From Alphaproteobacteria bacterium (lineage in GTDB: Bacteria > Pseudomonadota > Alphaproteobacteria > UBA828): a DNA stretch of 64,000 bases. Below are positions 21,396-61,916 of this stretch, piece after piece (position 1 is the first letter of the stretch; the number at the start of each line of letters is the position of its first letter). The notes below the pieces were generated by a model, which saw only the letters and a list, made by a program, of their open reading frames with translations, made no database searches and was not told where the DNA came from. Made by a program: the position numbers and the translations under genes. The stretch covers positions 4,000,001 to 4,064,000 of the forward strand of contig OZ243972.1 in NCBI GenBank assembly GCA_965214705.1, written 5' to 3'.

Positions 21396-22024
21396 CTCGC
21401 GCGCTCACGGCGCTCCTCAAGAAATCCCCGTCGTAGTCAAGCCAGATTCCGGTATGGGGTCTGCGTACCGCTTACTCTTCAACAGGTCCGCGCGCATAGT
21501 CACGATGGTCGAGGTGCCATTGGGCGCCATGTTGATGCGTCGGATGAGCTCCTGCCGGGGCGGCTCAACCGCTGCGCTGAGCGCCACGAGGGTGTCGAAG
21601 CCAGGCGCAGCCCTGTAGTCCTCGCTTGCCGCATGGATCGCCGCCGGGTCCGGACCATAGTCTGCCGCCAGCGTTGCGAAGAAGGCACGCTTCTCCACCG
21701 GGCTCATGGCGCGATAGGCATCGGCCATGTCCCGTGCCAGAGCCGTTCCAGATGCTTCGCCCCGCGTGGAAAGCAGCGCGTCACACAGCGCCGCGGGCGA
21801 TCGCGCGCGCAACCTTCCCGTCGACGATCCGCGCCGCAGGAGCTCGCGGCCGGCATCCGCCACGGAATTGATCACCTGGTTCAACCGCGATGACCTCATG
21901 CCTCTTCAAGTTCCTCCTCGGATGGCGACGCTCGGTCTACCGTGTGGGGTGGGTTCGCCAAATCGGCATCGCACCCTGACAGGTGAAGGAATACGTGGGG
22001 GCCGACGGCGGTACGGACAAGGTT

Positions 22025-22066
22025 AAGGGTTGGGCAGGCTCTCTCTCGAGAGCCTGCCCAACCCTT
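22025..22066. repeat. Perfect 19-bp hairpin at the transposase-distal (putative oriIS) end
   Basis: AAGGGTTGGGCAGGCTCTC-TCTC-GAGAGCCTGCCCAACCCTT; also present at 57272-57313. Confidence 0.9.
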
Positions 22067-23439
22067 TTGAACGAAGCCGCGGGCCACGAGAGGCGAAGTT
22101 GAGCTATGTGGAAAGTGCGCTGATGTCAGCGTCAGGCGGCATCCACCGGCAGCAGAGTTGCGCATAAAATCGACGCTCGCGCCGGTCTTTCGGCAGGCAT
22201 GCGGGCGCACGCTGCGAGGACTGAGCGGGGTGTGAGCCGAGGGCTGTCAGCCCGGCTCAAGCGGAGACAGGTTCGGTCGTGCGTCGGCGCTTTGGCGCCG
22301 TTGCGCGGGGCCGAAGCGAGCGGGCGTCTCACGGTTTCCCCCTGTGGGTCGGCGGCAGCGCCGGCGGGCCGCGCGTCGAGCGGGGCTCATGGCGGCGGCG
22401 GATTTCGCGGACGAGGCGCATGACGCCGCCGCAGTGGGGGCAGGCCACGGGCGCGGTGCCGATCTCGGGCTCTTCGTCGGGCTCGGCCTGAGCGCCGTCC
22501 ACGCTTCCCTCGGGGGCGGCGCAGCCGAGGGCGCCGAGAGCCTGGCGTGCTCTCTCCAGCGTGCTGGCGCGGCAGCCGTTGGCGAGGATGCCGAAGTAGC
22601 GAATGCGGTGCATGCCGTCCGGCAGGACGTGCCTCAGGAAGCGGCGGATGAACTCGTCGGCGCTCACGGTGGCGATGCCGTAGCGCGGCTTTCTCTGCCC
22701 CGGCGCCTTGGGCTTTCGGTGGCGGAAGGAGACCGTCTCGCCGTCGAAGGAGACGATGCGGCTGTCGGAGATGGCGATCCTGTGCGTGTAGTGCGAGAGG
22801 TACCGGAAGACCTGCTCAGGCCCGCGGAAGGGCCGCTTGGCGTAGACCACCCAGTCCCTGGCCCGGGCGGCGGCAAGCGTGGCGTGGAACTCGCCGGGAT
22901 TGGCGAGGTGGGCGACGGTGCCGTGGAACTCCAGGTCCCCCCGGCCGTGGGCGCGGGCGAGCTCCTCGAGGAAGAGGCGGCGGAACAGGCTGCCGAGGAC
23001 CTTGACGGGGGCGAGGAAGGTGGTGCTCCCCGTCTTCCACTCGCCACTGTCTACGTCGAAGCCCGCGTTGGGCACGACCACGTGCAGGTGCGGGTGGAAG
23101 CGGAGCTTCTGATCCCAGGTATGGAGGACCGCGGTGCCGCCGATGCGCATGCCGCCGTGGCGGGGATCGGCGGCGATGGTGCGCAGGGTCTCGGCGACGG
23201 CCCGGAAGAGGATGTCGAACACCACCCTGCGGTTGCAGAAGGCAATGGCGGCAACCTCCTTGGGCAGGGTGAAGACCACATGGAAGTAGGGCACCGGCAG
23301 GATGTCCCCGGCGCGCTCCTCGCTCCAGAGGTTGGCGGCGAGACCCTGGCAGGTGGGGCAGTGGCGGTTGCGGCAGGAGTTCTTATGAGCTCTCTCCGCA
23401 AGGCCCGGCTTCATCTACGTCAATGGCATTCGCAATCTC

Positions 23440-23700
23440 TCCACTCGAATCCGCGGCCGATGTCCAGGCAGAACGTCGTTTCCACGCAGCGATCCGCCAC
23501 GCTGCTCAGCTCTTATCCGGTTCGGAACTCCGGCGCTTGCCGGCTCCGTGACCCCAATACCGCATCCAAGCGGTGGTGACGTTCCGGGAGGCGGGACCCA
23601 TCTGTAGAACGGTGCCAAGCGGCGACCCAACTCTTGCCCGGTCACACGCCTTGCCCGGCATCCTCCGCGGCCGCGTCCGACCACGTCGGAACCTCCTGTA
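23440..23700 (-). ncRNA. Candidate seekRNA/bridge RNA of IS1111 copy A
   Basis: RNA-strand GAGTTG and CCGTTCT match the target flanks; GGTAT and ATAAGAG match the circle junction (see findings). Ends are approximate. Confidence 0.65.
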
Positions 23701-23726
23701 TTTTCCCGTTCGTTCGGCCGGTGCCC

Positions 23727-24923
23727 TCAGGAGACGATGGCGCCCTCAGGCACCAGTCCTTGGGTGGCATAGCGCCACAGCGCGATCAGCAGCTTGCGCG
23801 CGACCCCCACGATCGCCCGCTTCCTCGCTCGCCGGTCCCTCCCGCCACCGGCATCCCTGGCGACGTAGGCGTGGAACCACTTCGTGATCGCGCTTTCCGG
23901 TTGCAGCTTCAGCCAGCGCCAAGCCATCTGGATCATGTGCTTCCTGACATGCGAGGGGCCGGCCTTGCTGATGCCAAGATCGTGGTCGACATCTCCGCTC
24001 GCCCACGGCACCGACGTCAACCCGGCCCAGCTGCCCAACTCCCGGCGATTGCGGAAGTCCCGATAGAACACCTCGCCAGCCAGCAGTGTGGCGTCATTGA
24101 GGCCGATGCCATGGATGCGCGTAAGCGCCGCGATCATCGCCGTCCCGTCACGATTGGTCGCGTCCTGGGCTTTCCGGCCAGCCTTCAGCAGGGCCCTCTT
24201 CTCGGCCTCGATCATCTCGATATGCTCCTCAACCAGGCGAAGCATCCCCACCGCCCTCTCAATCTCTGCCCGCGCACGCGGCGGCAACGGCGCCCCATAG
24301 CCCGTCCGCGCGGTCGCGAGGCGTTCGAGGAAGTCCGGCTTGCGCGGCGCCAGATCGAAGATGCCGTGCAACTGCAAGAGCCCTTTGATCCGGTTGTTGA
24401 CGCGGGTACGCTCGCTGATCAGCGTGTCCCTCTCGCGCAGCAGGCGCTTGGCATCCTCCTGGTCCACATCGGGCACGCGCACCCAGGACATGGCCTCCGA
24501 ATCGCCTTGGTCCCATGCCTTCAGAGCCCGAACCATCCTCCTCGCGTCGATACGGTCGGTCTTTTTCTTCTTGGCGCGCCGGTTCACCCGCAGGCTCGCC
24601 GGATCGTTCATGAAGATATCGATCTCCGCGTCACGGCGCTCGATATCGCGGGCAAGCCAGAACCCCTCGTAGCCCGCCTCGTAGGTCAGCATCACCCGAG
24701 GACGGGCGCCGAGCTCCCTCGCCACCCGTTCCCGCACCGACCCGACGAGATCCAACAGTCCCGCCGTGTCGGCAGCAGCCAGTGTGTGGATGCTGATGCT
24801 GCCACCCGAGGCATCCGGGCAATGCACGCCAACGATCCACGATTTGAGGCTGATCTCCACCGCGACATAAATCGTGCTACTACTTGCGCCTGTCAGCGCG
24901 GTCGTGTCTGGACCATCCGACAT
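23727..24923 (-). CDS. IS110-family recombinase (IS1111 subgroup)
   Basis: YVAVEIS, YEAGYEGFWL, KTDRIDA, GLTSVPWASG, ISKAG, ARKL. Confidence 0.92.
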   Translation of the reverse strand: MSDGPDTTALTGASSSTIYVAVEISLKSWIVGVHCPDASGGSISIHTLAAADTAGLLDLVGSVRERVARELGARPRVMLTYEAGYEGFWLARDIERRDAEIDIFMNDPASLRVNRRAKKKKTDRIDARRMVRALKAWDQGDSEAMSWVRVPDVDQEDAKRLLRERDTLISERTRVNNRIKGLLQLHGIFDLAPRKPDFLERLATARTGYGAPLPPRARAEIERAVGMLRLVEEHIEMIEAEKRALLKAGRKAQDATNRDGTAMIAALTRIHGIGLNDATLLAGEVFYRDFRNRRELGSWAGLTSVPWASGDVDHDLGISKAGPSHVRKHMIQMAWRWLKLQPESAITKWFHAYVARDAGGGRDRRARKRAIVGVARKLLIALWRYATQGLVPEGAIVS

Positions 24924-25845
24924 CCGTCCACTCCGTTGTTGACGATTCCGCTCGGAGAGAAGGTGCTGGCCTTCTCTCCGAGCTTGTCTAACCGCCAGAA
25001 TCGATTCGGTGCCACCGTGCTCATGGTATCTGAAGAGCGGAGTGCGCCAGGCGAACTGGTGCGAGTGCAGTTGGTGAAAGTCCAACAGGAAGGAGAAGGT
25101 GAGCCACCACTTCCACCCCGAGTCATGGGCCGTCGCTCGCGAGGGCGAGGGTCAAGCGTTGACAGGGGCGCGTGTGGGCGGGGCTATTGAGCACCGAAAG
25201 AAACATCATCCGGGATGCCGAGGCTCTTTCGTTGGCCGAAGGTCGCATCTGGCCCACCGATATGGCGAGGGGGGTCTGAATCCCGCGGTGTCAGAGAACC
25301 CACGCACGTACGTACGCACTGCACCGGGACCTGGGAGGTCTCCATGTCATCCCGCTGAGTCGTGGCGGGAACGCTGAGGAAAGGAGGAGTCCGTAACCGA
25401 AGATGAACGACATGGAGAAATCAGACTCGGCCATAGTGTGTGCTGGGCAGCGCCCAGATCAGGTGGGTTCAAGTCCCACTGGCGCTCGGGTAAGGGGCGC
25501 CATATCCAAAAGTGGGGGTAATTCCTCACTGGCCGGAGTGAGCCGATAAGCGAAACTCTAAACGGGCACGAAGCCGGAAACGGCGGAGACAGCCAAGGGA
25601 GGAGCTAAGTTGGTCCACTGTCGAAAGACAACCGGAAGGCAGGGTGTCCACCGCGAGGTGGAATCTGAAGGGCTTGCGGAGAAGTACCGGGCCGTAATCG
25701 AGGGGGCCACCCCATGATGAATCGGTCGGCCAAAGACGGGGCAAGGTCGAGCCGGCACTATGGCGGCGAAGGCGTTCTTACCCACCCGTCGCACCAAGGT
25801 GTTTGCGAGCGGCACGGTACGGAAGATCTGGACGTGACCCCAGGA

Positions 25846-27532
25846 GGGTGTGATTCTCGTATGGCGATATGCCAGTCGTGATGGCGCTAAAGGATATGGG
25901 CTGGTTCATTTTGGTCAAGCAGCGAGTGCCAGGACTTCGGTTGGGCTGATGTTGTCGTTAGCTGGTCCGGATCGGGCGTCCATGAGCGCATCCCATGCCC
26001 GGTCGAAGAGGCCGGATTTGATCAGGGCGCGGAAGGTCAGAACCGCCTGCCCGCCGTCGATCCGCCAGCGCATGCCCGAGCGTTTCAAGCGCTGCGCGAC
26101 GAGGGTCTTGCAGGCCGCCTCGACCACACCCGAGCCGATGGCGATGCCCTCTTCCTTCAGGGCGTGGTAGCGCATCCGATGGCGGTGCTTTCGGAAGAAG
26201 GCCAGTTCGCGCTCGATCTCGGCCGGGTCCCCCTTTGCCCTGTCCAGGAGGTAGCGCAGTGCCCGGATCACCTTGTCGACGCCGCGGGGGTCGTGGCGCA
26301 GGATTTCGCGGTGCTTCTCGAACCAGTGGCGCGCCACCGCATGGTCAGAGGCCACGCGGAGATGCTCGCAAGCGTGCCAGAAGTCGATGACCTCGGTCTC
26401 GGGCGAGAGGCTTTCGAGGAAGGTCCAGTTGTCGGCGGCCCCGTCGGCGACGGCGCCGATCCTGATCTTCGGGCTCACACGGCGGATATGGGCGACCTCG
26501 CTTGCAAGTTGCGCTTTCAGCGCGGCCTTGCCGCTCTCGGGCATACGGCCGAGATAGAGGGTCTTCAGCCGTTGGCCCTCGGCGTCGTGGAAGGAGACCG
26601 TGCCGCAAGAGGCCTCGCGCCAGCACGCCTCGGCACGGCCGTCCTCGCCGGCCCGCAGCGCCACCATGACGCCGTCAAGGGAGACGGACGCGGTGACCGC
26701 ATCGGGCGGTATGCCCTGGGTTTCACGGATGCTGGCCAGCGTCTCCGGGGCGACGCTCTCCCAGTGCTCATGCATGCTCAGGGCCAGGCGCTGCAGCGTG
26801 CTCACCGACGGCGTCATTCCGCCCATTTTCGCGAAGAACTCCTCCGCTTCACGCGGCGTACAGTGGCCCATCATCATCAGCCCGAGCTGCGCCGCCGGCC
26901 GCGTCAGGTAGTCGTCGATGAGGCCCAGGCTCTCGTCCACCGGCACCAGCGACGTGCTGCTCGCGCCGCTGCGATAGCGCGCACGCCGATAGGTCACGGG
27001 ACCGAGCGTCGTCATGATCGTCTTCGGCGTCGCCGCCACCCGGACCCAGCTCTGTCCGTCGCGCTCGATCCGGCTCGCACCGTCGTCGCGGCTCTCGGCG
27101 AAGGCCCCAAGGAGCTTGCAACCCAAGCCGTTCATGGCGTCCCGCAGCCCCGTCTCAACCGTTTCGAACGTCTCGGCAGACGGGTCAGACCCAGCCTGTT
27201 CGCGACAGAACTCCACCACCTGGGCGACCGCTTCGGCGACTTCGGCAGGCAGGCCCAAAAGGTCGATGGACGAGGCGATGAGAGACTGCGACACTGGCAT
27301 GGGAACGCTCCTGATGTTGGGTCTGATGTTGGGTTGTCGGCGCGGCATCCTACCGCATCTCGCGGTGCGGAGCGTTCCCACCCACCACTGCTGGATGCCG
27401 CCGTTGTGACAAAATCCGGCCCTGCACCGGCCGATTGTCACGAAAACCCGATTCTGGCTGCCTACGGCCACCCGCCAATCGCGCTAAATCAATGACTTAC
27501 GATCGCCATGCCAGACCTCCAGACCTACACCC
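25846..27532 (-). mobile_element. ISKra4-family element inside the inner intron RNA
   Basis: Ends GGGTGT / ACACCC; 8-bp TSD CCCCAGGA (25838-25845, 27533-27540). Confidence 0.88.
25915..27300 (-). CDS. ISKra4-family transposase
   Basis: SLDG, ADGAADNW, DFWHACEHL, IGSGVVEAACK..RLKRSGMRW. Confidence 0.88.
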   Translation of the reverse strand: MPVSQSLIASSIDLLGLPAEVAEAVAQVVEFCREQAGSDPSAETFETVETGLRDAMNGLGCKLLGAFAESRDDGASRIERDGQSWVRVAATPKTIMTTLGPVTYRRARYRSGASSTSLVPVDESLGLIDDYLTRPAAQLGLMMMGHCTPREAEEFFAKMGGMTPSVSTLQRLALSMHEHWESVAPETLASIRETQGIPPDAVTASVSLDGVMVALRAGEDGRAEACWREASCGTVSFHDAEGQRLKTLYLGRMPESGKAALKAQLASEVAHIRRVSPKIRIGAVADGAADNWTFLESLSPETEVIDFWHACEHLRVASDHAVARHWFEKHREILRHDPRGVDKVIRALRYLLDRAKGDPAEIERELAFFRKHRHRMRYHALKEEGIAIGSGVVEAACKTLVAQRLKRSGMRWRIDGGQAVLTFRALIKSGLFDRAWDALMDARSGPANDNISPTEVLALAA

Positions 27533-27611
27533 CCCCAGGAGGGCTCGCCGCGTTCCCGGGTGGCACCGGGATAACGGACCCTATAAGCCGAAAGGCGAAA
27601 TGGGAAGGGGA

Positions 27612-27794
27612 TTATATATCTGACTGAATGACGGGCTGATCCATGATGCCGGATGGCTCCGCCTCAGCCTCCCCGTCTTCGGCCTGTGGCTCGTGCCGCA
27701 ACAGCGCGCGGGCCACCATTTCAGGAGTCGCCCCCTCGTAGCGGGGGTTGAGCGTCTCCAACTCGTGTTTCAGCTTTTCAGCCTTCTCGGTCAT
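27612..27794 (-). CDS. 60-aa conserved IS1595-associated microprotein
   Basis: PRYEGATPEMVARALLR resembles the ORF at 58686-58847; stop codon lies inside the IR. Confidence 0.65.
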   Translation of the reverse strand: MTEKAEKLKHELETLNPRYEGATPEMVARALLRHEPQAEDGEAEAEPSGIMDQPVIQSDI

Positions 27795-28210
27795 TGCGTT
27801 GCCTTCATTCCCGGTGGCGAGGGGGGGGCGATACTATATTGCATATTATCGCCCCCTCTGTCACCATGCCCGCGCTCACATCTGAGAAGCCCGCTTCGTC
27901 GGGCTACTCGCTGAATACAACAGCCCTTGTGTGGCTCGGGGTCGCTCCCCGGACCGGCGAATAGGCGGGACCTTCCAACGCTTCTTGGATGTGAGCAAAC
28001 GGCCCGGCACCCCGTCGGGCCGCGAGCAGAGGGCAGGCTACGCTATAAGAGATCGCCCCATCGGCTGGGGACGGGTGGTGCCCCGTCCCCAGCCTACCAC
28101 GGGGCTTGGTGTTGGCTTCGGAGAGCGCACCAAACCGCACGGCAATGACAGTCTATTACCGATCCCAAGCCGTACAAGAGGTGCCTCTCCGACGATTTTA
28201 GGAGAGCGCT

Positions 28211-28582
28211 ATGCACACTTGGTATGCCTCTTTGGCGGCAGCGGCCATGATGCTCGCCGCTGTCGCCACCACTCACGCGCGGGCAGATATCGTATGCCCA
28301 AAGGGCAGCCTGCACGACTTCGTTCCAAACGCGGTCTGGCAACAGTACGTCGCCAACAGCCGGGACTATATCGCTCGGATGCTCCGAAGGATGGAGGATG
28401 TCCGAGACCGCCAGATGGTCATGGAGCGGATGTTCGAGGAGGGCTTCATCGCCGCCACGGACATCGTGAACGCTCACTGCGTCTCGCGGCCGATTGGCGA
28501 GCCATGGAGCACAGAGATCAAGCAGAAGCGGCGCGAGGCTTGGTGCCGAGAATGGGGTGATGCCTATTTCTGCAAGAGGTGA
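28211..28582 (+). CDS. Hypothetical secreted protein (passenger)
   Basis: RBS AGGAG, Ala-rich signal peptide ending THARA, four Cys; overlaps the next gene (GTGA). Confidence 0.65.
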   Translation: MHTWYASLAAAAMMLAAVATTHARADIVCPKGSLHDFVPNAVWQQYVANSRDYIARMLRRMEDVRDRQMVMERMFEEGFIAATDIVNAHCVSRPIGEPWSTEIKQKRREAWCREWGDAYFCKR

Positions 28583-29361
28583 TCGCAAGAATCACCGTGC
28601 TTCCGATCTACGTCATCAACCTCGACCGCAGGCCGGATCGGCTCGCGGCAATCGCGGCGGACCTGGACCGGCTCGGCCTACCCTTCGAGCGCATCAAGGC
28701 CGTCGACGGCCAAGAGCTACAGGAAGATCTGGGCCCGGAGCCGCTTCTGAACCTGGCTGAGAAAGCGTGCGTGCTGAGCCATGCGAACGCGCTGCGGCAC
28801 CTCCTCCATTCAGAACACCCAGCGGCCGTGATCCTCGAGGATGACGCTGAGTTCGGAGAGGGGCTTGCGCAACTCTCCCGCTCGATCGACTGGTGGCCGG
28901 AAGGCACCTTGCTGCTGAAGCTGGACCAACCGTTCCCGAGAAAGCGGCTCGTCGGCCTGCCGTGTGGACGAACGCCGGACGGCCGCAACCTGAGAGAGAA
29001 CATCCGGTGGAGCTCAGGGTCGGTGGGCTACATCGCTACTCGCGCCGCTGCCGGCGAGATACTGGTGTCCCTCGAGACAGACAGCATCATGCCCTTCGAC
29101 GAACTGATGTTCGACTGCCGCATATCAGACCTAGCGCGCTGGCTCCGTGCAATGCAAGTCCAGCCCGCGCCTGTCCGGCAACGGGACCGCGGGAGACCGG
29201 ATGAATTCCCCTCGGATTTGGAGGACAGCCGCCAGACACCGGAGTCATTGAGTTATCGCCACCGCCGTCGACAGCGGCGCCGATTTCACCGTCGTCTGTA
29301 TCTCTGGATGTTGTGGGCAATCGGCAATGCGAAGAGCATGAAGATCACCTACTGCCCGTAA
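28579..29361 (+). CDS. Glycosyltransferase family 25 (LPS/LOS-type)
   Basis: YVINLDRRPDR, FERIKAVDG, ACVLSH, ILEDDA. Confidence 0.9.
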   Translation: MIARITVLPIYVINLDRRPDRLAAIAADLDRLGLPFERIKAVDGQELQEDLGPEPLLNLAEKACVLSHANALRHLLHSEHPAAVILEDDAEFGEGLAQLSRSIDWWPEGTLLLKLDQPFPRKRLVGLPCGRTPDGRNLRENIRWSSGSVGYIATRAAAGEILVSLETDSIMPFDELMFDCRISDLARWLRAMQVQPAPVRQRDRGRPDEFPSDLEDSRQTPESLSYRHRRRQRRRFHRRLYLWMLWAIGNAKSMKITYCP

Positions 29362-29601
29362 TCGCAGATTCAAACTGACCCACTACCCGCGATTGACGAC
29401 TGACCGGGTTTAGGCTATCCGCGGGCTCGTGGCCGTGACGAATCGCGGTGGCCTCGACTGACGAAGCCGGCCCTGGCGGGACCGGCTTCGGAACTGGGGT
29501 CCGGTGTAGACCTACCGAGGCGCACCGAACTGGCTCATCTGAGGTGGAAATCCTAGCGATTCCCGCGAGCCGGTCAAGTGCGCCCTCAAGAAGAGGGCAC
29601 A

Positions 29602-29826
29602 ATGCCGAAGAAATATCCGACCGGCTTCGATCTCAGCAAACGCTCATCCCGTTCTCGCAAATCGCGGAAGCCCGACCAACCTTCGATCAAGTATGGTGAT
29701 GTTGTCCGGCAGCGCCCGAATGGGCTGCCACTGCAAGTCACCGATGTGGAGGGCGATAAGGTCTACTGCGACGGGTTCATTGACCCGTTCGGGGCATCCG
29801 GCCTTGAAGTTGTGATCCGCTTCTAG
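29602..29826 (+). CDS. Small hypothetical protein (YodC/DUF2158-like fold possible)
   Basis: IKYGDVVRQRPNGLPLQVTDVEGDKVYC pattern; RBS AAGAGG. Confidence 0.5.
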   Translation: MPKKYPTGFDLSKRSSRSRKSRKPDQPSIKYGDVVRQRPNGLPLQVTDVEGDKVYCDGFIDPFGASGLEVVIRF

Positions 29827-31044
29827 TGTCCTGTCATTCATCAACTGTCGGATAGAGGCGTTTCAGCTTCACCCGTGCGTCGTCCGTGGTGAACTGCCAG
29901 TTGACGTTGCCCCGGATGCGGTCTCGGGACGCCTGCCAAGCCGCGACCTCGTCGCGCAGGACTTCGAGGGAGGCGATGCGGCGGTTGAGACACTGACGGA
30001 TCATGACGTTGAGCTCGACCTCGGCGACGTTGAGCCAACTGCCGTGCTTGGGCGTGTAGACGAACTCGAAGCGGTCCCACAGCGCCTTGGCCTGGTCCGG
30101 CGGAAATGCCTCGTAGAGGGCGCCGGGGCGGTGGGTGTTCAGGTTGTCCATCACAAGCGTGATCCTCTTGGCGCGGGGGTGGCGCTCGGCGATGTCGTTG
30201 AGGAAGTGCGCCCAGTCGGTTTTGGTTCTGCGCGCCGTCACCTTGGTCATACGCCGCCCGGCCAGGGGTTCGGTCGCCATGAACACGTTGCAGCTTCCGC
30301 AACGTCGGTACTCGTAGTCTTCGCGCGCCGGCCGACCCGGCGCTGCCGGAACCGGTTCGCGTGTCTCGCCGATCAGTTGCCGGGGCGTCTCGTCCATGCA
30401 CACCACCGGAAAGGCTGCATCGTAGGGACGCCGGTAGACGTCGAGAACCTTCTCCATCGCCGCGGCGAAGTCCGCGTTGCCCTGTGGGGGAATCACCCAG
30501 CCGACGCGCCGCCACGGCTTGATTGCGTTTTTTTTAGCACCCGGCGCACCGTCTCGTGCGACACGCTGTCGATGTGGCCGAGTTCCACGATGCGGTCCGC
30601 CAGCAACCGCAGCGACCACTGCGAGTGGCCCTCCGGCGGCTCGGCGCAGCTCAGCGCCACCAAGTGCGCCTCGAACTCGCCGTCGGCCTTGCGCACGTAG
30701 CTGGGACGGCGACCCTGCCGGCCACCGAGCGCCGCCGCCATGCCCGCCTCGACGAAACGCTTCTTGACCCGCTCCACCTTGCGCGCACTGATGCGCAGGA
30801 TCTCCGCAATGGCCTCCCCGTGCGCCCGGTGCTCGTTGAACTCGCCTTCGTCGCAGTTGAGCAGGATCAGCGCGTTGATCACCTTCTGTGACTGATGAGA
30901 GCCCTTGCGCGTGATCTCTGCGAGCTCGTCCCGCTCCTCCTTCTCCAAAGTCACCACGTAACGCTTCATGCCAGCCTCCTCGCCGTCGTGCGACGACGAG
31001 AAAGCTATCATGAAATGGGCGACATATCGTATGTGACATGACAC
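29826..31044 (-). mobile_element. IS630-family element inside the IS1595
   Basis: IR GTGTCCTGTCA / TGACATGACAC; TA duplication within CTAG. Confidence 0.92.
29834..30969 (-). CDS. IS630 transposase, programmed -1 frameshift
   Basis: orfA MKRYVVTL...VSHETVRRVLKK; A8 run at 30528-30535; orfB CMDETP, MDNLNTH, TPKHGSWLNVAE. Confidence 0.9.
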
Positions 31045-32020
31045 TAGGACCGCGCGCCTGAGTCCAGTCCGTTGTCGGCGATCAGGTCACGGTAGCACAG
31101 GCGCTTGCCGATCATCCCGGCGACCACCGCGCCCATCTGGTCGATGGTGTCGCTCTCGCGCACGTTGTGGCGGCCCGCGAACTCTTGGACGTACCGTTGC
31201 AGGTGCTTCGCGCTCAGCTTGTGGTAGACGCCCTTGTGCGCCCGCTTGAGCATGGACCAAAACGACTCCATGCCATTGACGTGGGCTTGGTTGCGGACAT
31301 ACTCGCCAGCACTGTGGTTCACGGCCTCGCGGTCGAACTCGCCTTCCAGCGGGTTGTAGGCTGCGCTTTCGTCCGTATAGACCTTCGCGCCCGGCTCGGT
31401 CTTCTCTGCGACGAAGCCCGCGACATGCGGGGCATCCGTGTTCTGAATGTGCCGCACCGCGACGCGGTTGGTGGCGCGGTCCTTGGTGCCGACCACGGCC
31501 TCTTTGCCGACTGCACCGCGCCCGCTCAGCGTCTTCCGCTTGGCCTTCGACATGTTCGCGCGCCGCCCACCCACGTATGTCTCATCGGCCTCGACCGGCC
31601 CCGAGAATAGCGATTCGCTCTCGGCGGACCAAGCCTCCCTGATCCGATGCAGCATGAACCAAGCGGTCTTCTGCGTCACCCGCAGGTCGCGATGCAGCTT
31701 CATCGACGACACGCCCTTGAGGCTGGTCATCTCCAGGTAGATGGCGAAAACCCACTTGCGCAGCGGAACCTTGGAGCGCTCCAAGGCCGTGCCGATCCGC
31801 ACCGAGAAGGCCCGCTTGCAGGCCGGGCAGTAGTAGGGCAGGCCGGACGTGGCGGACGCTTCCGCAGTCTCGGTGCATCCGCAGCGCGGGCAATGGCGAC
31901 CATCCGGCCAGACCAGAGACTCGAACCACGTGGCGGCGGAAGCCTCGTCCGGGAACATCTCGGTCAACTCGATCAGGCTGATTCCCTCGCGGTGCGCTTT
32001 GCCCGGTGCCTTCTTCGCCA
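31044..32020 (-). CDS. IS1595-family transposase
   Basis: CPRC/CPAC zinc ribbon, AWFMLHRIR, VEADETYVGG, YTDE, HVNGMESFW. Confidence 0.94.
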
Positions 32021-32249
32021 TCGCCCTAACCCCTTGTGCTAACGTCTTGATCTGAATATAGGGGTTCACGACCGTTCAGTCAGGTATATAATCCCCAATG
32101 GGAAAGGATGCGCGGCGAGCAATCGGACAACCGAATAGTACCTGAAGCCCGGCGAAAGCCGGGTGACCGCGCGAGCGGCGGCCGTGTGGGCCGGGGAAGG
32201 CGGTTGGCAGAGGTGGTCGGCGAGAGACAGCGATGAGTGAGTAAGGACC

Positions 32250-33560
32250 ATGACGCGGACAAGTTCCTTGAGCGAAAGACCCGGACATCATGGCCCGAGG
32301 AGACTCATCGACTGGATCAACCCGGCGGGTGACAGGAAGGTCCACTCACTGGTGGACAAGGTGTACAAGCGGAAGAACCTTGAGGTGGCCTGGGAAAAGG
32401 TGAAGCGCAACCGGGGTGCCGGTGGCGTGGACGGAGAGGATTTAGCGGCGTTCGAGGCATCGCTGGATGCAAATCTCGATCGCCTGCACCGGGAGTTGCG
32501 GGACGGTGAGTATCACCCGCAGCCGGTTCTCCAATGCCTGATCCCCAAGGCGGGCCAGCCGGGGAAGTTCCGCCCGCTCGGCATCCCGACAATCTACGAC
32601 CGGGTGTGCCAGCAGGCGCTGCTGAACCGGCTGGAACCGATCTTCGAGCCGGTGTTCGACGATGCCAACTACGGGTACCGGCAAGGAAGGTCTGCCCATG
32701 GAGCGTTACGCAAGATATGGAGGGAACTGGACGAGGGCAACGAGTGGGTTCTCGATGCGGATTTGAAAGACTTTTTCGGGTCCGTGGACCACGAAAAGCT
32801 CCTCGAACTCGTCAACCAGCGAGTCTCGGATGGCCGGGTATTAGGTCTGCTCAGGCAGATGCTCACGGCCGGGGTGGTGGCCGACGGTAAGAGGCTGCCG
32901 ACCGAACAGGGCACTCCGCAGGGCGGCATCGTTTCACCGCTGCTCAGCAATATCTTGCTGACCCCGTTCGATTGGGAAATGCGTCGTCGCGGCTATCGAC
33001 TAACGCGATACGCCGATGATTGGCTGATCACGTGCCGCACACGCGGGGAAGCCCGCGCAGCACTGGAGACGGCCAGGCGGATTCTGGCAAAGCTGGGTGT
33101 GTCCCTCAACGCCGGGAAGACCCGCATTGTCCATGTCAGGCACGGGTTTGAGTTCCTCGGCTACAAGATCAAGCAGGGCGAGCGGCCTCTCCGGCTGTCG
33201 TCCTCCAAGATCAAGAGCGGGGTTCGCGGGGGAGCGCGCTACGCGGTTCCGCGTGAGAAATCCATCCGGCACTTCAAGGACCAGATTCGCCAGCGTACCC
33301 GGCGCAAGGCTCCTGTCAGCACGCAGGAGCTGATTGACGAGATCAACCCGATCATTCGGGGATGGGGCCAATACTATTGCAAGGCCCACGTCCGCGGGCT
33401 CTTCCACCAGCTTGACGGCTGGATCGTGCGGCGGCTCTGGTCGCATCGTCGCAAGCGCTGGCGCAACGCTGGCTGGAAACAGTTGCCGGAGCGCAAGCTG
33501 ATCGACGAATACGGGCTTGTTCGCCTGATCTCACTGGTTCCGTCCTTGAACCTTCGTTGA
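32250..33560 (+). CDS. ltrA: Group II intron reverse transcriptase/maturase (inner intron), intact, no endonuclease domain
   Basis: RPLGIPTIYDRVCQ, GTPQGGIVSPLLSN, RYADD, FLGY, maturase X domain (NPIIRGWGQYY). Confidence 0.95.
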   Translation: MTRTSSLSERPGHHGPRRLIDWINPAGDRKVHSLVDKVYKRKNLEVAWEKVKRNRGAGGVDGEDLAAFEASLDANLDRLHRELRDGEYHPQPVLQCLIPKAGQPGKFRPLGIPTIYDRVCQQALLNRLEPIFEPVFDDANYGYRQGRSAHGALRKIWRELDEGNEWVLDADLKDFFGSVDHEKLLELVNQRVSDGRVLGLLRQMLTAGVVADGKRLPTEQGTPQGGIVSPLLSNILLTPFDWEMRRRGYRLTRYADDWLITCRTRGEARAALETARRILAKLGVSLNAGKTRIVHVRHGFEFLGYKIKQGERPLRLSSSKIKSGVRGGARYAVPREKSIRHFKDQIRQRTRRKAPVSTQELIDEINPIIRGWGQYYCKAHVRGLFHQLDGWIVRRLWSHRRKRWRNAGWKQLPERKLIDEYGLVRLISLVPSLNLR

Positions 33561-33822
33561 GACACCTTTGTGAAAGCGGCTTACGGGAAAACCGTACGGG
33601 CCGTTTGAGCGGCGGACGGAGGCTAGCCTCGCGGGGCGCCTCCTCCGACCCGACAGCGATGAAGCCGGCGAACAATGGGGCACCTGCCCCGGCGGAGCCG
33701 GTGGAGCCAAGGGCCGAGCCCAAGGGGAATCTGGAAGGCCAAAGCACGCGCCGGACGCAGGACCGGGAGAGCGTGTCACAAGCGGCTGACCGGATACGGC
33801 AGTTTGTACAAAGGGAACCTGG

Positions 33823-35852
33823 CCCATCTGGGATTATGGCACTACGTTTGTGCGCTCATCGCGACACTCCCGGGAGCACCGCCCGGCGCCTGTGGGGATC
33901 CACCGTGAGGCCCGCCGCCTGCGCGATGACGCGCGCCTCGGCGTCGGGTTGAGCATCCTGGCGGATGACGATGCGGTTTCCGTCCACCTCCCGGATGGTG
34001 GAGGTGAGACGCACCCAGCCCGCGAGCTTGTCGCGGATCGTACTCCAGCGGTCATGCAAGCCGTGCGCCGCCAGACGGGTTCGCAGCAGATGAACCGCGT
34101 GGTAGGCGAGGACGGCGATGAACAGGTGGGCGGCGATGCGCGAGGTCTTGGAGTGCCAGACCGGGCGCAGGCCGATTTCGGATTTCAGGCTGCGGAAGGT
34201 GGCCTCGAGCTCTGTGAGCTTCCAGTAGGTTCGGACCACGGTTTCAAGATCCCACTCGACGTGGCTGGTGCGCAGCACATAGATGCCCGCTTGGCGGTCG
34301 CGCTCGGCATGGAGAGCGTTGCGCCTCCAGCGGACCGCACTGGCCCGCCCCTTCTCTCCGGGCTCGACCTCGATGTCGTACTGACGGTGGACGCGCCTGT
34401 ACCTTTCCTTCAGCCGGCCCAGCTTCTCCATCACCTTGGTGAACTGCTTGATGTGGTTCTTCTTCGACAGCCCGCCATGCAGGGCGCGCAGGGCGTCCTC
34501 GAAGTTGTGACGCTGACGGGCGAGCACGGCCTCGTCCTTCTGCTGGCGCTCATGGCTCCAGACGCACAGGTGCGCTTCGTCGTCCCCTGCCGCGAGACGC
34601 CAGGCGCGGGCATCGTGGCCGGCCCGGGTTTCGAAGGCGGCATCGGCTTCGCGCCCGGGCGGCGCCGAGACGCCGCGGCGAACGGTGATCCAGTGATAGC
34701 CGCCCGCCCGCAGCCAGGCGAGGTTGGCCTCGGTGGAGATGCCGGCGTCCATGATGACCGTGGGCCTGGGGGCGTTGCTGCCGCGCGCTTGGCATTCCAG
34801 CCGCCCGATGGCGTCGGCGAGAGTGGCCGGCTCGGAGATGTTGCCGGGCAGGATCTCGCTGTGCTGCGGAAAGCCGGCCTGGTTCAGCGACAGGGCCAGG
34901 GTCACGATCGGACAATCGTCACGCCTCTGCTTCGAGCGCCCGAAGCGGGCCAGCGCGGAGCTGGGCCGTCCGGTCATATGGGTGTTGGTCAGGTCGAAGA
35001 AGACGATGGTGTCGGGGATGCCGAAGAGATCGCGCTCCCGGGCGCACAGCGCCTCTTCAAGCGCCGCGCGGTGACGCCACAAGAGGTCGCCGATGCGGTA
35101 GAGCTTGCTGAGCGTGAGCGACTTGCCGCTGTCGACATCGAGCAACTCCAGGGTCGCGCTGTTCGCGCTCAGCCAGCGGAAGGCCTCGCGCTCGCTGGAG
35201 GGATGGATCATGCGCGCGACCACCAGTGCCGCCGCGATGCGTGCGTCGCGCTCACTTGCGCCCAGCCTCTCCAGCGTCTCGATGAAGCGAAGGTCGTCAA
35301 GCGCGGCGAGAGCCAGGCGCTCGCAGCCCACCGAGCGGACCTGTTCGTGGGAGAGGCTATCGAGACGGACCGTGGCCAGGTCGCTCTCGTCCCCGGGCCG
35401 CGACGCGCCGAGATCGCGGGCGTGAAGCCGCCGTACGACGTCCTCGGCGACGGGGCGCAAGGCGGCATCCGGCTCCAGCAGCGGCTCGCTGCCGGCGAGA
35501 AGGGTTTCGATCAGAAGCGCCAATTCGCGCCATTGCTCCTCGGGCACACCGAAGTCGGCGCCGAGATTGAGGAGCGTGACCTGGCGCACCCTTCCGCCGA
35601 TGCGTTCGCTGCGCACGAGGCGGTAGGTGGCATAGCGCTCGCCACCGTCTCCGCGACCGGTGAGGGTTTTGCGAATGAACATGGCGGCAGGGTCACGGAC
35701 AGTTTGCGGACTGTCAAGGAGCGCCGGCCCACAGACCAAAGATTATGGCACTACAATGGACTTCCCAAAACACAATCCAACAAAATCAGTGCCTTAGATC
35801 CCAAAGGCTACCCAAAATCAGGCCTTCGGGACCGAAAAGTGGCAAAGATGGG
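33823..35852 (-). mobile_element. IS1634-family element, copy 2 (lacks 66 bp at the transposase-distal end)
   Basis: Matches 11995-14024; TSD CTGG (33819-33822, 35853-35856). Confidence 0.92.
33856..35682 (-). CDS. IS1634 transposase (same protein as 12028-13854)
   Basis: Identical translation in the ORF track. Confidence 0.92.
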   Translation of the reverse strand: MFIRKTLTGRGDGGERYATYRLVRSERIGGRVRQVTLLNLGADFGVPEEQWRELALLIETLLAGSEPLLEPDAALRPVAEDVVRRLHARDLGASRPGDESDLATVRLDSLSHEQVRSVGCERLALAALDDLRFIETLERLGASERDARIAAALVVARMIHPSSEREAFRWLSANSATLELLDVDSGKSLTLSKLYRIGDLLWRHRAALEEALCARERDLFGIPDTIVFFDLTNTHMTGRPSSALARFGRSKQRRDDCPIVTLALSLNQAGFPQHSEILPGNISEPATLADAIGRLECQARGSNAPRPTVIMDAGISTEANLAWLRAGGYHWITVRRGVSAPPGREADAAFETRAGHDARAWRLAAGDDEAHLCVWSHERQQKDEAVLARQRHNFEDALRALHGGLSKKNHIKQFTKVMEKLGRLKERYRRVHRQYDIEVEPGEKGRASAVRWRRNALHAERDRQAGIYVLRTSHVEWDLETVVRTYWKLTELEATFRSLKSEIGLRPVWHSKTSRIAAHLFIAVLAYHAVHLLRTRLAAHGLHDRWSTIRDKLAGWVRLTSTIREVDGNRIVIRQDAQPDAEARVIAQAAGLTVDPHRRRAVLPGVSR

Positions 35853-37394
35853 CTGGGGTGCGTCTCACGACGCTCCTCCATCACGTCACGGTCGCTGCGC
35901 TGCGCTGGGCGTTCTTCGAGTTGAAGAAGGACGCTGCGGCGGGTGTCGATGGCCTGACGTGGCGGATGTACAAGGAAGGGCTGGAAGGCCGTCTCGCCGA
36001 CCTGCACGACCGAGTGCACTCGGGGGCGTACCGGGCGACGCCATCACGGCGGGTGAACATCCCGAAGCCGGATGGCGGCACACGACCGCTCGGCGTCGCG
36101 GCCATAGAGGACAAGATCGTCCAGAAGGCTGTGGCGGAGATAATCCTGACGCCGATCTACGAGGCGGAGTTTCTGGGGTTTAGCTACGGGTTCCGACCCG
36201 AGCGTGGGGCGCACAATGCGCTCGATGCGCTGGCGGTCGGGATCGAAAGGCGCAAGATCAACTGGATAGTGGACTGTGACATCCGCAAGTTTTTCGACAC
36301 GGTTTCGAGGGACTGGCTGGTCCGGTTTCTAGAGCACCGGATAGGGGACAGGCGGGTTATCAGGCTGATTATCAAGTGGTTGAACGCTGGCGTCATGGAA
36401 GCTGGAGAGTGGCGTGACGACCTGCGGGGAACTCCGCAGGGTTCGGTGATTTCGCCGATCTTGGCGAACGTTTATCTGCACTACGTCCTCGATCTTTGGT
36501 TCCAGAAGAAGTGGCGCAGCCACGAGGTCAACGGCGACTCGATCATCGTTCGCTACGCCGACGACTCTGTGGTGGGTTTTCAGCACGAGCAGGACGCGGA
36601 GTGCTTTCTGGAGGCCGTAAAGGAGCGGCTCGGACGCTTCGACCTGGAACTGCATCCCGACAAGACCCGGCTCATCGAGTTCGGGCGGCACGCCATAGAG
36701 CGCCGCCAAGGCCGAGGGCAGGGTAGACCGGAGACCTTCGATTTTCTGGGCTTCACACACTACTGCGCGAAGACCAGACGGGGGTACTTCATGCTGGGGC
36801 GCAGGCCGATGGCGAAGAGGATGGCCCGCACCCTGAAGCGGATCAAAGAGGTGCTACGCAGGCGGATGCATGACAACATCGAGGATACGGCCAGGTGGCT
36901 GGGCAAAGTGGTGGACGGATGGCTGAACTACTATGCCGTCCCGACCAGCAGCCGGTACTTACAACGCTTCCTCGTCCGCCTAAAGCGGGTGTGGCTCGCC
37001 ATTATACGCCGCAGATCGCAAAAGGACCGATTTACATGGGCCGACATCGACAAACTTAAAGCTCGACACTGGCCCAAGCTGAGAATCCGACACCCGTGGC
37101 CGGATCAACGACTAGCCGTCAGTTCGACCTGAGGGAGGAGCCGGATGCCTTAGCGGGCACGTCCGGATCTGCGCGGGGGGAGCGGGGCAACCCGCTTCCC
37201 TACCGCGATTGCTCGCGCCCGCAGCCCTCGCAGGCGTACATGTGGCCGCCGAGCACGGCGGTGCGGCACGCCTCGATGGCGCCCATGACCTTGAGCCGGG
37301 CGGCGTCGATGCGCCCTTTGTGGCGCTCACGGAAAGCGGCGCCGGCGCGGCGGAAGATCTCCGCCACGCCCGCGCGTTCGGCCTCCACGCGCCG

Positions 37395-38273
37395 TCAGTT
37401 GCGCAACGCTGCGAAGCCTGAGATCGGGTGGTCGAGGCCCTCGAACATCTTGCCGGTGACGCGGGCGTAGTGACGGGTCGTGTTCGCGCTTCGATGGCCG
37501 AGCATGTCCCGGATCACCTCGATATCGCCGCCGCGCTCGAGGAGATGGGTCGCCGCCGAATGGCGCAGGCAATGGAAGGTGTAGCTGCGGTCGAGCTCGG
37601 CAATGTCGCGCGCCCTCCTGAAGGCGGCCTGCAAGGTCTCCGTTGCGATGGGCCTGTCGAGCGAGACGCCGTAGAAGAGCCAGCTCGTCGGACGCGGCCA
37701 GATGTTCCTGTAGTAGACGCGCAAGTAGTGGATGACGATGTCCGGCAACGGTGCCATTCTCTCGGTGCCGCCTTTGCCGGAGGGGATGTGCAGCAGCTTC
37801 TTCTCCGACAGGATGTCGCCGACCTTGATGGCCAAGGTCTCGGAGATGCGGAGCCCGCCGCCATAGCCGGTGACAATGGCAGCACGGTGGCGGAGGTCGG
37901 GTGTCGCAAGGATGAGGTGCTCGACCTCCTGCTCCGACATGTAGCGCGGCAGCTTGCCGGGCTTCTTGCGGGAGCGCAGGCCGGCGACATGGTCAGGCCA
38001 GCCGAGTGTGTCGATGTAGAGGAAGTTCAGCGCGGCGAAGGAGACGTTGGTCGTGCCCGGACTGAGCCCCTTGTCGATCCGCCCCAGGTACCACTGGCGC
38101 ACCTGCTCGGCGTCGAGCTCGTCCGGCGAGGCGTCGTAGTACCTGGCCAGGTTCTTGATCTCGCAGATGTAGGCCTTGGACGTGCTCGCGGCCAGATTGG
38201 CGATGCGGAGCTGCTCCTCCATGCGCTGGCGAAGAGGGGTGACGGTGTTCGTGTCGCACGCGGTCCCGGTCAT
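37395..38273 (-). CDS. Tyrosine recombinase of the IS91 element (copy A)
   Basis: N-terminal SAM-like LRQRMEEQL; GLRISE, GKGG, HCLRHS, LGH, Y. Confidence 0.93.
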   Translation of the reverse strand: MTGTACDTNTVTPLRQRMEEQLRIANLAASTSKAYICEIKNLARYYDASPDELDAEQVRQWYLGRIDKGLSPGTTNVSFAALNFLYIDTLGWPDHVAGLRSRKKPGKLPRYMSEQEVEHLILATPDLRHRAAIVTGYGGGLRISETLAIKVGDILSEKKLLHIPSGKGGTERMAPLPDIVIHYLRVYYRNIWPRPTSWLFYGVSLDRPIATETLQAAFRRARDIAELDRSYTFHCLRHSAATHLLERGGDIEVIRDMLGHRSANTTRHYARVTGKMFEGLDHPISGFAALRN

Positions 38274-38714
38274 TATCGATCTCCCTGGATCGCGACGGCG
38301 CGCCGCCGGACCGATCCGGCGACGGTCCGTCGCAGGGGTCGATGCTAACCACTGGTGATCGGGAGGCTGCTGGGGATCCGCCACCCGACGGGCGGAGCGC
38401 CACTGACGCAACCGGGAAGCGAACGCACAGAACAAACGGCACCCGCGACGCCTCGGAAATGAATGAACTCTACGCCGCTAACTCCGCGTAGCGGCTTCGT
38501 TCAAGAGCCGCCGGCCCCATGGCGCATGAGCGAGGCCTGCCGTCGTCGGCTCTCCGGCCCGCAACGGTTGGACGGAGAAATCTTGGTTGGCATTACGGTG
38601 TTCTGCCTTGGTGCCGGCACGCCGGCGTGCTGCCCGACCGTTCCAGGCACGTGATCGGAGACCGGCAGCACGGCGACTTCCAAGTCCAGAAAGACCACCG
38701 CGCTCAAGGAGGCG

Positions 38715-39012
38715 ATGACCAAGACGCAACTGGTGGCCTCGCTCTCCGAATCGACGGGGCTCTCGAAGTAAGGAGGTGTCGGCGGTTCTCGACGAGCTCG
38801 GGATCGTCATCGACCGCCACGTCAGGAAGCGCGCCGTCGGCACCTTCACCCTTCCCGGCCTGCTGAGGCTCAGGCGTGTGCGCAAGCCTGCCAGAATGGC
38901 GCAGACGATGATCTCGTCGCGCACGGGTGAAGAGATTGAGGTTCCTGTGAAGCCGGCCTCGACGGGGGTGAAGCTTCAGCCGCACGCGGGCCTCAAGCGG
39001 ATGATCGAATAG
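38715..39012 (+). pseudogene. HU/IHF-family DNA-binding protein, frameshifted
   Basis: MTKTQLVASLSESTGLSK, one extra T (AAG T AAG GAG), then KEVSAVL..FTLPGL..KPAR..TGEEI. Confidence 0.8.
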
Positions 39013-57234: not shown

Positions 57235-57492
57235 TCAGTCGAAGCGCGGGAGGCTCTGAGCGGGGAAGGTTAAGGGTTGGGCAGGCTCTCTCTCGAGAGC
57301 CTGCCCAACCCTTTTGAACGAAGCCGCGGGCCACGAGAGGCGAAGTTGAGCTATGTGGAAAGTGCGCTGATGTCAGCGTCAGGCGGCATCCACCGGCAGC
57401 AGAGTTGCGCATAAAATGGGGATTATATATGTGACTTGATTTTGGGGGCGTAAAGTTGTATATTTCTGCGTGGATTCAATGGGGTAGGCGAC

Positions 57493-58473: not shown

Positions 58474-58685
58474 ACCAGAGGGAAGCAAAATAGCTCCTAC
58501 GACGATCCTGACTGCTGTTGATGACGCTGCAGGCAACATCGGCGAAGCCTGGCTTCGGATCATCCGCGACTATCTGGACGAGAGGGCACCAATAGGGACG
58601 CAGACATCTATGAGATGGAGCACACTCAAAACTGCTCCGTTCACCAATAGTCGTCCCGGCAAAGCCGGAGAAAACGAGGTTTACG

Positions 58686-58847
58686 ATGGCCAAGGGGACT
58701 CTTCCCAAGCCGAATAAGATCGGCGATCCGCACTTCAAGGGCGCGACGCCCGCGACACTGGCTCGCGCTCTTATGCGCCGTGTGCGTCCGATAAAGCCGA
58801 CAGGAAAATCGACGACTCAACGGGGACGCATCAAGTCACATATATAA
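58686..58847 (+). CDS. 53-aa IS1595-associated microprotein (absent from the ORF track)
   Basis: RBS GAGG; MAKGTLPKPNKIGDPHFKGATPATLARALMRR...SHI*; TAA inside the IR. Confidence 0.65.
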   Translation: MAKGTLPKPNKIGDPHFKGATPATLARALMRRVRPIKPTGKSTTQRGRIKSHI

Positions 58848-61721: not shown

Positions 61722-61916
61722 GAAGAGCGGATGCTCGCGCCCGCAGCCCTCGCAGGCGTACATGTGGCCGCCGAGCACGGCGGTGCGGCACGCCTCGATG
61801 GCGCCCATGACCTTGAGCCGGGCGGCGTCGATGCGCCCTTTGTGGCGCTCACGGAAAGCGGCGCCGGCGCGGCGGAAGATCTCCGCCACGCCCGCGCGTT
61901 CGGCCTCCACGCGCCG

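Follow-up and report, generated by a model that had tools for sequence, protein, structure and literature searches.

Introduction

Elements of the IS91 family transpose by a rolling-circle process, and the portions of PMC13181058 dealing with IS91 describe a layout in which the terIS end, with a cleavage word borne by the element, is followed by an accessory open reading frame (ORF) overlapping tnpA, by tnpA itself and by the oriIS end with the target word. According to the same portions, insertion of IS91 leaves no duplication, only the bottom-strand circle is inserted, the accessory protein Orf121 is both an inhibitor and a termination factor, and termination failure amounts to 1–14% for IS91 and IS1294. 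Two elements that bear IS names in the NCBI annotation, ISAzo26 (Aromatoleum aromaticum EbN1 plasmid 2) and ISMno24 (Methylobacterium nodulans pMNOD01), carry a tyrosine recombinase gene immediately upstream of the transposase gene and on its strand: that of ISAzo26 has 879 nt and lies 9 nt before the transposase gene, and that of ISMno24 has 861 nt. As each of them has such a preceding gene, this architecture is already catalogued. Here we describe a 2666-bp element of this kind, present in two interrupted copies in a stretch of 64 kb from an alphaproteobacterial genome (contig OZ243972.1, positions 4,000,001 to 4,064,000; the window, to which all coordinates refer unless a contig is named). 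The element is most likely an active and highly amplified member of the IS91 family. We consider it probable (about 0.62), by analogy with IS91 and IS1294, that its transposase moves it by rolling circle and that the recombinase is a conserved accessory.

Organisation of the element

Self-BLAST of the window together with a read-out of the junctions revealed two copies, A and B, both with their coding strand on the minus strand and both interrupted, which yield the same unit of 2666 bp once the insertions are subtracted. The first read-out placed them at 22019/22022–38505 and 57266/57269–63027; the limits corrected from genome-wide junctions and empty sites are 22021–38504 for copy A and 57268–63026 for copy B, with no change in length. 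A search of the host genome (7.92 Mb; 7,920,168 bases in three contigs, C1–C3) with three parts of the element gave 100, 105 and 95 BLAST hits, and the ends found (97 of one kind and 93 of the other) correspond to about 95 copies. Sixty-one of the 90 end pairs span exactly 2666 bp, nine span 4316 bp (the unit plus an IS110-family element) and the remainder are longer or odd.

In an intact copy the unit holds only two genes and the ends. The downstream gene encodes a transposase of 413 residues with the Zn_Tnp_IS91 (PF14319) and Y2_Tnp (PF04986) domains of Pfam, which scores 329.6 bits with the NCBIfam model transpos_IS91 (NF033538; cut-off 125). In the translation of an intact copy, read by eye, we take HPHLHVV to be the HUH motif and YLSHYTHR to contain the two tyrosines. 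In the window this gene is split on the minus strand into N-terminal parts (37210–37388 in copy A, with the GTG start at 37388, and 61721–61910 in copy B) and C-terminal parts (22329–23380, where Y2_Tnp is found at 2.4e-54, and 59019–60070). The upstream gene, on the same strand (37395–38273 and 61917–62795), encodes a tyrosine recombinase of 292 residues when read from its ATG, the length of its homologues, with the Phage_int_SAM_4 and Phage_integrase domains; its stop codon lies 6 nt before the transposase GTG, in the same frame. By its protein domains the element is an insertion sequence of the IS91 family with an HUH-Y2 transposase, and, from its gene order, it belongs to the sub-group with a Xer/IntI-like tyrosine recombinase gene before the transposase gene, as do ISAzo26 and ISMno24.

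The two ends are unlike and each has a subterminal palindrome: a 19-bp hairpin at a distance of 4 nt from one terminus and, at the opposite terminus, a 7-bp stem at a distance of 10 nt. The end placed 5' of the genes starts with the 14-mer TTGAACGAAGCCGC (38491–38504 in copy A and 63013–63026 in copy B, both on the minus strand), and an inverted copy of this 14-mer is found on the plus strand beside the hairpin at the opposite end (22067–22080 and 57314–57327). These four matches compare with 0.01 expected by chance in the window. The hairpin end of copy A (22021–22066, minus strand, 3' of the transposase gene) reads ...AAGGG, hairpin, CCCTT AACC on the coding strand; the 19-nt arms (22025–22043 and 22048–22066) are 100% complementary, enclose a 4-nt loop and fold as DNA at −28.5 kcal/mol. 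The equivalent hairpin of copy B is placed at 57272–57313, so that hairpin and internal 14-mer together cover 57272–57327. A preliminary description of this DNA had already proposed an exact 2666-bp unit, an IS91 plus tyrosine recombinase identity and a 14-mer repeated 45 bp inside the far end next to a perfect 19-bp hairpin. The length is exact, the Pfam and NCBIfam models bear out the identity, the 14-mer and the hairpin were found again at the same positions, and the distance is 45–46 bp.

Delimitation of the ends and of the insertion site

On the coding strand the element reads 5'-TTGAACGAAGCCGC...CCCTTAACC-3'; it is preceded by a variable base N and followed by TT(G), and no target duplication is present. 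Among 96 distinct left flanks the junctions are N-TT-GAACG, N being C in 47, T in 29, A in 15 and G in 5, with a near-invariant TT (T in 93/96 and 95/96 at its two positions). On the right, ...CCCTTAAC-C stands at the junction, with TT after it in most cases; this last C is invariant (93/93), while the dinucleotide after it varies at its first position (T 72, A 9, C 5 and G 3 of 89) and is T in 86 of 89 at the second.

A closer inspection of 19 pairs with exact paralogous empty sites, which hold flank-N-TT-flank once, allowed these bases to be assigned. Sixteen of the pairs are clean, two show 1–2 extra T and one shows a base difference, and no real duplication was seen. The base N stays on the left where it is not C (G at site p37, T at p51 and p60); therefore the C on the left belongs to the flank. 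The preliminary description had taken CTT to be common to both junctions, a unit that falls apart here, since the left C is part of the flank and only the right C is part of the element, as its last base. Where the target dinucleotide is not TT, it is found to the right of the element and TT to its left (CT at p14 and p24, AT at p59, from comparison with paralogs), and thus the left TT belongs to the element. Inheritance with the element does not account for the non-TT variants on the right, which are scattered over the haplotypes. Limits of the form GAACG...AACCTT, inserted after NTT, were considered and dropped on account of the right-hand dinucleotide at p14, p24 and p59 and of right-end variants that are not bound to lineage. 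The 8 copies that seemed to form a right-end class 'CCG' do not have a variant end; in them a 2092-bp insertion sequence has entered the CTTAAC of the end, with a 6-bp duplication.

The polarity of the element was read by comparison with IS1294. The limits of IS1294 from pCP301 (L094, 1061–2748) were taken from its coverage by unrelated plasmids, and it reads GAAC...CCTATACGT|GAAC in 3/3 right junctions. Since the present element starts with TTG and is followed by TTG, under the same rule as in IS1294, the hairpin end is the ori side and the end with the upstream 14-mer is the ter side. In the rolling-circle scenario the transposase would nick the non-coding strand after the flanking CAA beside the hairpin end (ori), and replication would peel the nicked strand off up to GTTCAA at the far end (ter); on this strand, target and ter would both be cut after CAA. 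The peeled strand would be closed into a single-stranded circle and then inserted after a ter-like ...CAA in the target. Pairing of the terminal 14-mer with its inverted copy beside the ori hairpin would form a hairpin of about 33 bp with a 4-nt bulge at the joining point, aligning both ends. Our best guess for the recombinase is that it assists transposition by exchanging strands at the repeat arms, which would help to complete or tidy the process, for example in the handling of circle or tandem junctions; by analogy of position it may instead resemble Orf121 of IS91 and act in the control of termination.

Target preference

The 89 distinct targets show preferences on both sides of the insertion point. 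Downstream these are T+1 (72), T+2 (86), G+3 (43), C+6 (65) and G+7 (51), and upstream C-13 (42), G-12 (44), C or A at -9, A-8 (42) and A-7 (42), in a genome with an A content of 16.6%. The preferred target is thus a weak 7-6-7 palindrome, CGnnCAA-N6-TTGnnCG, formed by two arm-like half-sites, and insertion takes place where the spacer meets the right half-site; of the spacers 2 to 11 tried, 6 gives the highest palindromy. The element's own first bases, TTGAACG, resemble the target found after its other end, TTGnnCG. Core sites of tyrosine recombinases typically have a 6-bp spacer. Left flanks of other families show the AA-N6-^TT spacing again, as CATAA-N6-TTGGAC or TTGAAC (L020, L022, L026, L031, L041, ISAzo26 and the IS-C family of the host, see below), with CATAG in L068 and CAAAA in L042 at the same spacing. 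In unrelated families CATAA-N6-TTG is often the foot of a REP-like palindrome. The self-complementarity of single targets, calculated as a search for target hairpins, was no higher than in 500 shuffles (89 targets), which gives no indication of a hairpin at the target.

This bipartite target speaks for a pathway of two enzymes, in which the HUH transposase would only copy the element out as a single-stranded circle and an IntI-like recombinase, bound to the arms, would insert the folded junction strand where the target reads AA-N6-^TT. Made up of arm, hairpin, 4-nt bulge and arm, the junction would fold like an integron attC site, one strand would be exchanged and replication would resolve the product. 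The palindrome with its best spacer of 6, the insertion at the spacer edge, the excess of A at -8 and -7 (each 42/89) and the recurrence of the spacing in other left flanks are in favour of such a pathway. Set against this, IS91 and IS1294, which are free of a recombinase, insert alone with the same logic of first bases equal to the target; G, the base that integrons prefer before TT, is the rarest here (2/89); and the half-sites of a target do not co-occur beyond chance. Insertion by two enzymes is in our view unlikely, though well worth keeping in sight.

The terminal repeat and the junction hairpin

Joined in a circle or a tandem, the ends stand in the order GCGGCTTCGTTCAA, 46 nt with the hairpin, TTGAACGAAGCCGC, which can fold as one long hairpin whose predicted 4-nt bulge (AACC/GGTT) lies exactly at the joining point. 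The genome contains a natural head-to-tail tandem of two copies (C2:643959–649294) with its junction at C2:646629, which displays the arrangement foreseen in the preliminary description, the 14-bp arms brought about 46 bp apart around the hairpin. An extra GGTT opposite the bulge brings the upstream copy of this tandem to 2670 bp and makes the junction a perfect palindrome (37-bp stem, −55.2 kcal/mol on either strand). This would be the expected product of the repair of an extruded hairpin and hints that the fold forms in cells.

The inverted repeat of the ends is kept on both arms through matched changes in related loci (TTGAACGAAGCTGC, TTGAACTAAACCGC, GTGAACTAAACCGC, TTGGACTAAACCGC(T) and TTGGACTGAACTGC), in at least five sequence variants, and it is kept with one mismatch in the IS-C family and in ISAzo26. 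In ISAzo26 the left end is TTGGACTAAACCGC, its inverted copy and then a long palindrome are found near the right end, and CATAA-N6 precedes the left end.

The conserved arms are also compatible with the two-enzyme pathway. The integron core motifs are GTTRRRY and RYYYAAC, with the crossover at ^TT. By eye, 6/7 positions agree with these motifs both in C^TTGAAC at the junction and in the inner GTTCAAA, and the ^TT crossover is the same. In its most specific form, that of an IntI-like recombinase that acts on the 14-bp arms and pastes the attC-like folded strand copied by the HUH enzyme into degenerate CGnnCAA-N6-TTGnnCG sites in the style of an integron cassette, the idea is a shade more doubtful still. 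In IS1294 itself the junction and the ter hairpin are flanked by a 10-bp inverted repeat, TTTTCAATTT and AAATTGAAAA (about 0.08 expected by chance), and, as IS1294 carries no recombinase, a repeat of this type can belong to the HUH transposase. Only four left flanks of IS1294 were at hand for the search of a second half-site, too few for the purpose.

The tandem bears on another explanation, in which the recombinase would act as a resolvase or excisionase of tandem multimers or double-stranded circles left by failed rolling-circle termination, without a role at the target. Tandems do occur, one among about 95 copies here, its junction now a perfect palindrome, and a further one with a period of 2599 in a locus of another phylum (L017); termination failure of 1–14% is reported for IS91 and IS1294 in PMC13181058. 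On the other hand, the full arm-hairpin-arm site is present once per dimer, so that resolution from site to site would lack a partner, and a second internal core site was not found, no systematic search for it having been made. This role is regarded as improbable.

The recombinase and its relatives

The recombinase scores with the XerA, XerC, XerD and integron-integrase models of NCBIfam, below all cut-offs; the integron-integrase models TIGR02249 (132.3 bits in two stretches, against a cut-off of 265) and NF011946 (76.9 bits, against 435) are not reached. Its best relatives of solved structure are XerA, XerD and IntI4. The sections of the preprint 10.1101/542381 that treat these proteins place the recombinases of IS91 and IS3 elements in an integron-like subgroup, without the extra helices of IntI. 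This kinship agrees with what insertion by an IntI-like enzyme would demand.

An alignment of 39 homologues showed that R130, H238 and H260 are invariant and that K167, H234, R237 and Y269 are conserved in at least 90%; we read these seven residues as the putative active site. Of 8000 candidates scored, 5330 are homologues at E<=1e-10, and the closest ones are 292 residues long, many of them on contigs of 2.5–2.8 kb. When a single genome was taken for each species, the scan yielded 79 related loci. An IS91 transposase gene follows directly 3' on the same strand in 52 of them, at recombinase identities of 31–65%. Such pairs were found in Alpha-, Beta- and Gammaproteobacteria, Acidobacteriota, Verrucomicrobia, Planctomycetes and Firmicutes; where a transposase is absent (27 loci), the match is for the most part among the most distant. 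From this conservation the recombinase is apparently catalytically competent and a conserved accessory. The recurrent pairing and the near-invariant residues would also suit an inserting recombinase.

The same data bear heavily on the view that the recombinase gene is a passenger or encodes a non-catalytic regulator, the inverted repeat being then a recognition sequence of the transposase only. Precedents for it are Orf121 of IS91, which comes from the same upstream coupled position and is an inhibitor and termination factor in the account of IS91 in PMC13181058 cited above, and IS1294, which also has a repeat between its ends. It is opposed by the strict or nearly strict (at least 90%) conservation of the putative active-site residues, by a gene pair that is kept down to 31–35% recombinase identity and by a recombinase ORF open in 61/61 intact copies, and we hold it to be very improbable indeed.

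Two further observations concern relatives. The 4862-bp circular plasmid p4 of Sphingomonas parapaucimobilis (NZ_CP155766.1; L092) has no annotated genes besides this pair, given there as a site-specific integrase and a transposase of the IS91 family. It was considered as a possible free circle of an element, but the element-like ends span only about 2.5 kb of the 4862 bp, the other 2.3 kb being unannotated. The host genome itself carries the IS-C family (2613 bp, about 12 copies, e.g. C1:1526488–1529101), with a recombinase and an IS91 transposase that are 34% and 40% identical, respectively, to those of the main element. Its ends, TTGAACTGAGCCGC...CCAATTCA, are located between REP-like palindromes TTAT-GTTGAGCTCAAC-ATAA, and three of its copies directly adjoin the main element on its right.

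Copies in the host genome and arguments on the mode of transposition

The 61 intact copies fall into 33 haplotypes, and both the recombinase and the transposase ORFs are open in all of them (61/61). Together with its IS110 the element occupies 294,324 of the 7,920,168 bases (3.7% of the genome), and in public data (contigs of four runs, two studies) its depth is about 60–100 times that of the flanks; these data, in the form of contigs only, list no circle junctions, joints or empty sites, and no RNA run. Four IS91-type families are present in the genome, and a recombinase is found in all four. In 7 of the 61 intact copies the 4-nt loop of the hairpin is inverted from GAGA to TCTC (coding positions 2641–2644), which looks like a flip between perfect hairpin arms.

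Several points weigh against rolling-circle transposition with an accessory recombinase, or against the delimitation on which it is built. The weak left half-site of the target (C-13, G-12, A-8, A-7) is not needed by a single-strand HUH enzyme and would be explained more naturally by a dimeric recombinase, and the long-term keeping of an intact recombinase suggests more than an accessory. Among the empty-site comparisons, p74 puts the target CT on the left, at a site that is the junction with the own left end of a related element; p78 is messy; p63 and p79 have one and two extra T, respectively; and at p8 the target reads TTC against TTT at the occupied site. The orientation of the element showed no bias with respect to the local GC skew once the element was masked (46 to 50 of 97 concordant at five window sizes), and insertion of a single strand linked to the replication fork might predict one. 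The skew is a poor guide in this rearranged genome; as the skew curve of this genome is irregular, no conclusion is drawn from the test. An apparent bias at ±50 kb (67/97 concordant) was dropped, since it came from the element's own skew (−0.11) and was gone after masking.

The protein variants were compared with the choice of target in 74 typed copies at 14 variable sites. Copies with E202K in the transposase have non-TT targets in 7/17 cases against 5/57 for the others (p=0.004, uncorrected), and all seven of these E202K copies also carry S197N in the recombinase, for which p=0.11. E202K is the only variant, of the 14 sites, with a link to relaxed target choice, on evidence that is weak: the link is uncorrected for 14 sites, the copies are mutually related and the proteins can act on other copies, all of which counts against leaning on it. 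For what it is worth, relaxed choice tracks the transposase variant, not the recombinase variant, which speaks against an inserting recombinase.

Insertions within the element

In both window copies a 1650-bp IS110-family element interrupts the zinc-domain coding part of the transposase gene on the minus strand, at 60071–61720 in copy B, compared with the intact copy in L003, and at the same site, 23381–25030, in copy A, where the position was carried over from copy B by the self-BLAST offset. Of the 21 places in which most of this IS110 is present, 18 (13 uninterrupted and 5 further broken) have it at the identical base of the transposase gene, and the eight 4316-bp copies that were typed belong to six haplotypes. 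This suggests that the IS110 targets the IS91 gene repeatedly and site-specifically, rather than a single insertion having been copied later, with gene conversion as an alternative.

Copy A alone contains a group II intron on the plus strand (25042–37209), with a GTGCG start and a CGCGAT end and recognised at 25077–25300 by the Rfam model group-II-D1D4-6 (RF02005, 172 bits). With 12.2 kb, and only 11 nt from the IS110 site, it has itself been invaded by other elements. Besides its reverse transcriptase (35858–37132) it holds an ISKra4-like element (25915–27471), an IS1595-like element (31044–32069), a second intron reverse transcriptase (32250–33560) and an IS1634-family repeat (33819–35852; 2034 bp) that is 100% identical to window positions 11991–14024. 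Copy B alone is also interrupted by an IS1595-family element on the plus strand (57418–58852), flanked by the 8-bp duplication CATAAAAT at 57410–57417 and 58853–58860. The window as a whole is dense in mobile elements according to Pfam and NCBIfam, and no drug-resistance gene was seen among its genes.

Outside the window, a 2092-bp insertion sequence (e.g. C3:1555946–1558037), with terminal inverted repeats CCGAACTTCC...GGAAGTTCGG and a 6-bp duplication of YTTAAN, has 8 of its 15 copies in the CTTAAC of the hairpin end of the main element, in both orientations. Since other mobile elements hit it repeatedly, the element also shapes the structure of the genome.

Significance

This genome amounts to a natural experiment. 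Its copies, about 95 in number, are nearly identical, and 61 are intact; distinct insertion sites number 89, and for 19 pairs an exact empty site is available. The genome also offers the junction of a tandem, three more related families and protein variants of unequal target fidelity. The amplification makes the job of the recombinase testable, with the arm, the folded junction and the 7-6-7 target as defined substrates. No study of the role of the recombinase in IS91-type elements was found in full-text literature searches, and no description of the exact ends, the bipartite target or the bulged junction hairpin was found in print, ISfinder, TnCentral and supplements lying outside the search. 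If insertion by two enzymes were true, a step in the style of integron cassettes would serve a rolling-circle transposon, with a possible evolutionary link between IS91 elements and integrons.

Comparison with known systems

The element shares with IS91, IS801 and IS1294 the HUH-Y2 transposase with its zinc domain, the unlike ends with subterminal palindromes, the absence of a target duplication and, next to the end 3' of tnpA, a short target in which the first bases of the element recur. In IS91, orf121 is an accessory gene coupled upstream of tnpA, in the position of the recombinase gene here. These three elements differ in a transposase identity of about 27%, in having no recombinase gene and in a target of CTTG or GTTC instead of TT(G). 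The repeat described here includes the ter cleavage point and the hairpin stands on the ori side, whereas the hairpin of IS1294 stands on the ter side.

The likeness to the single-strand transposition of IS200/IS605 elements (IS608; see PMC5027513) lies in the HUH enzyme, the end hairpins and a target word that matches a word borne by the element at its other end; those elements have a Y1 enzyme and a peel-and-paste mode, with a strong bias to the lagging-strand template, from which the present element differs in that no orientation bias could be demonstrated.

With integrons the element has in common a recombinase of the Xer/IntI kind and a junction that resembles attC in its predicted fold, an imperfect palindrome with bulged bases, and in a joining point before the TT of a TTRRRY-like word. 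It differs from them in the avoidance of G before TT noted above. Neither an attI site nor a promoter nor a cassette array was found in the 2666-bp unit, and an Rfam scan of 21500–39000 at gathering thresholds found only the group II intron.

ISAzo26 and ISMno24 are the closest in gene content. The transposase of ISAzo26 is only 46.8% identical to that of the present element, and ISMno24 is about 67% identical in DNA over 900 nt; the arm sequence and the hairpin are different, and the copy number is far higher here. The IS91 plus recombinase kind is therefore already known, and the element described here is a new and unusually successful member of it.

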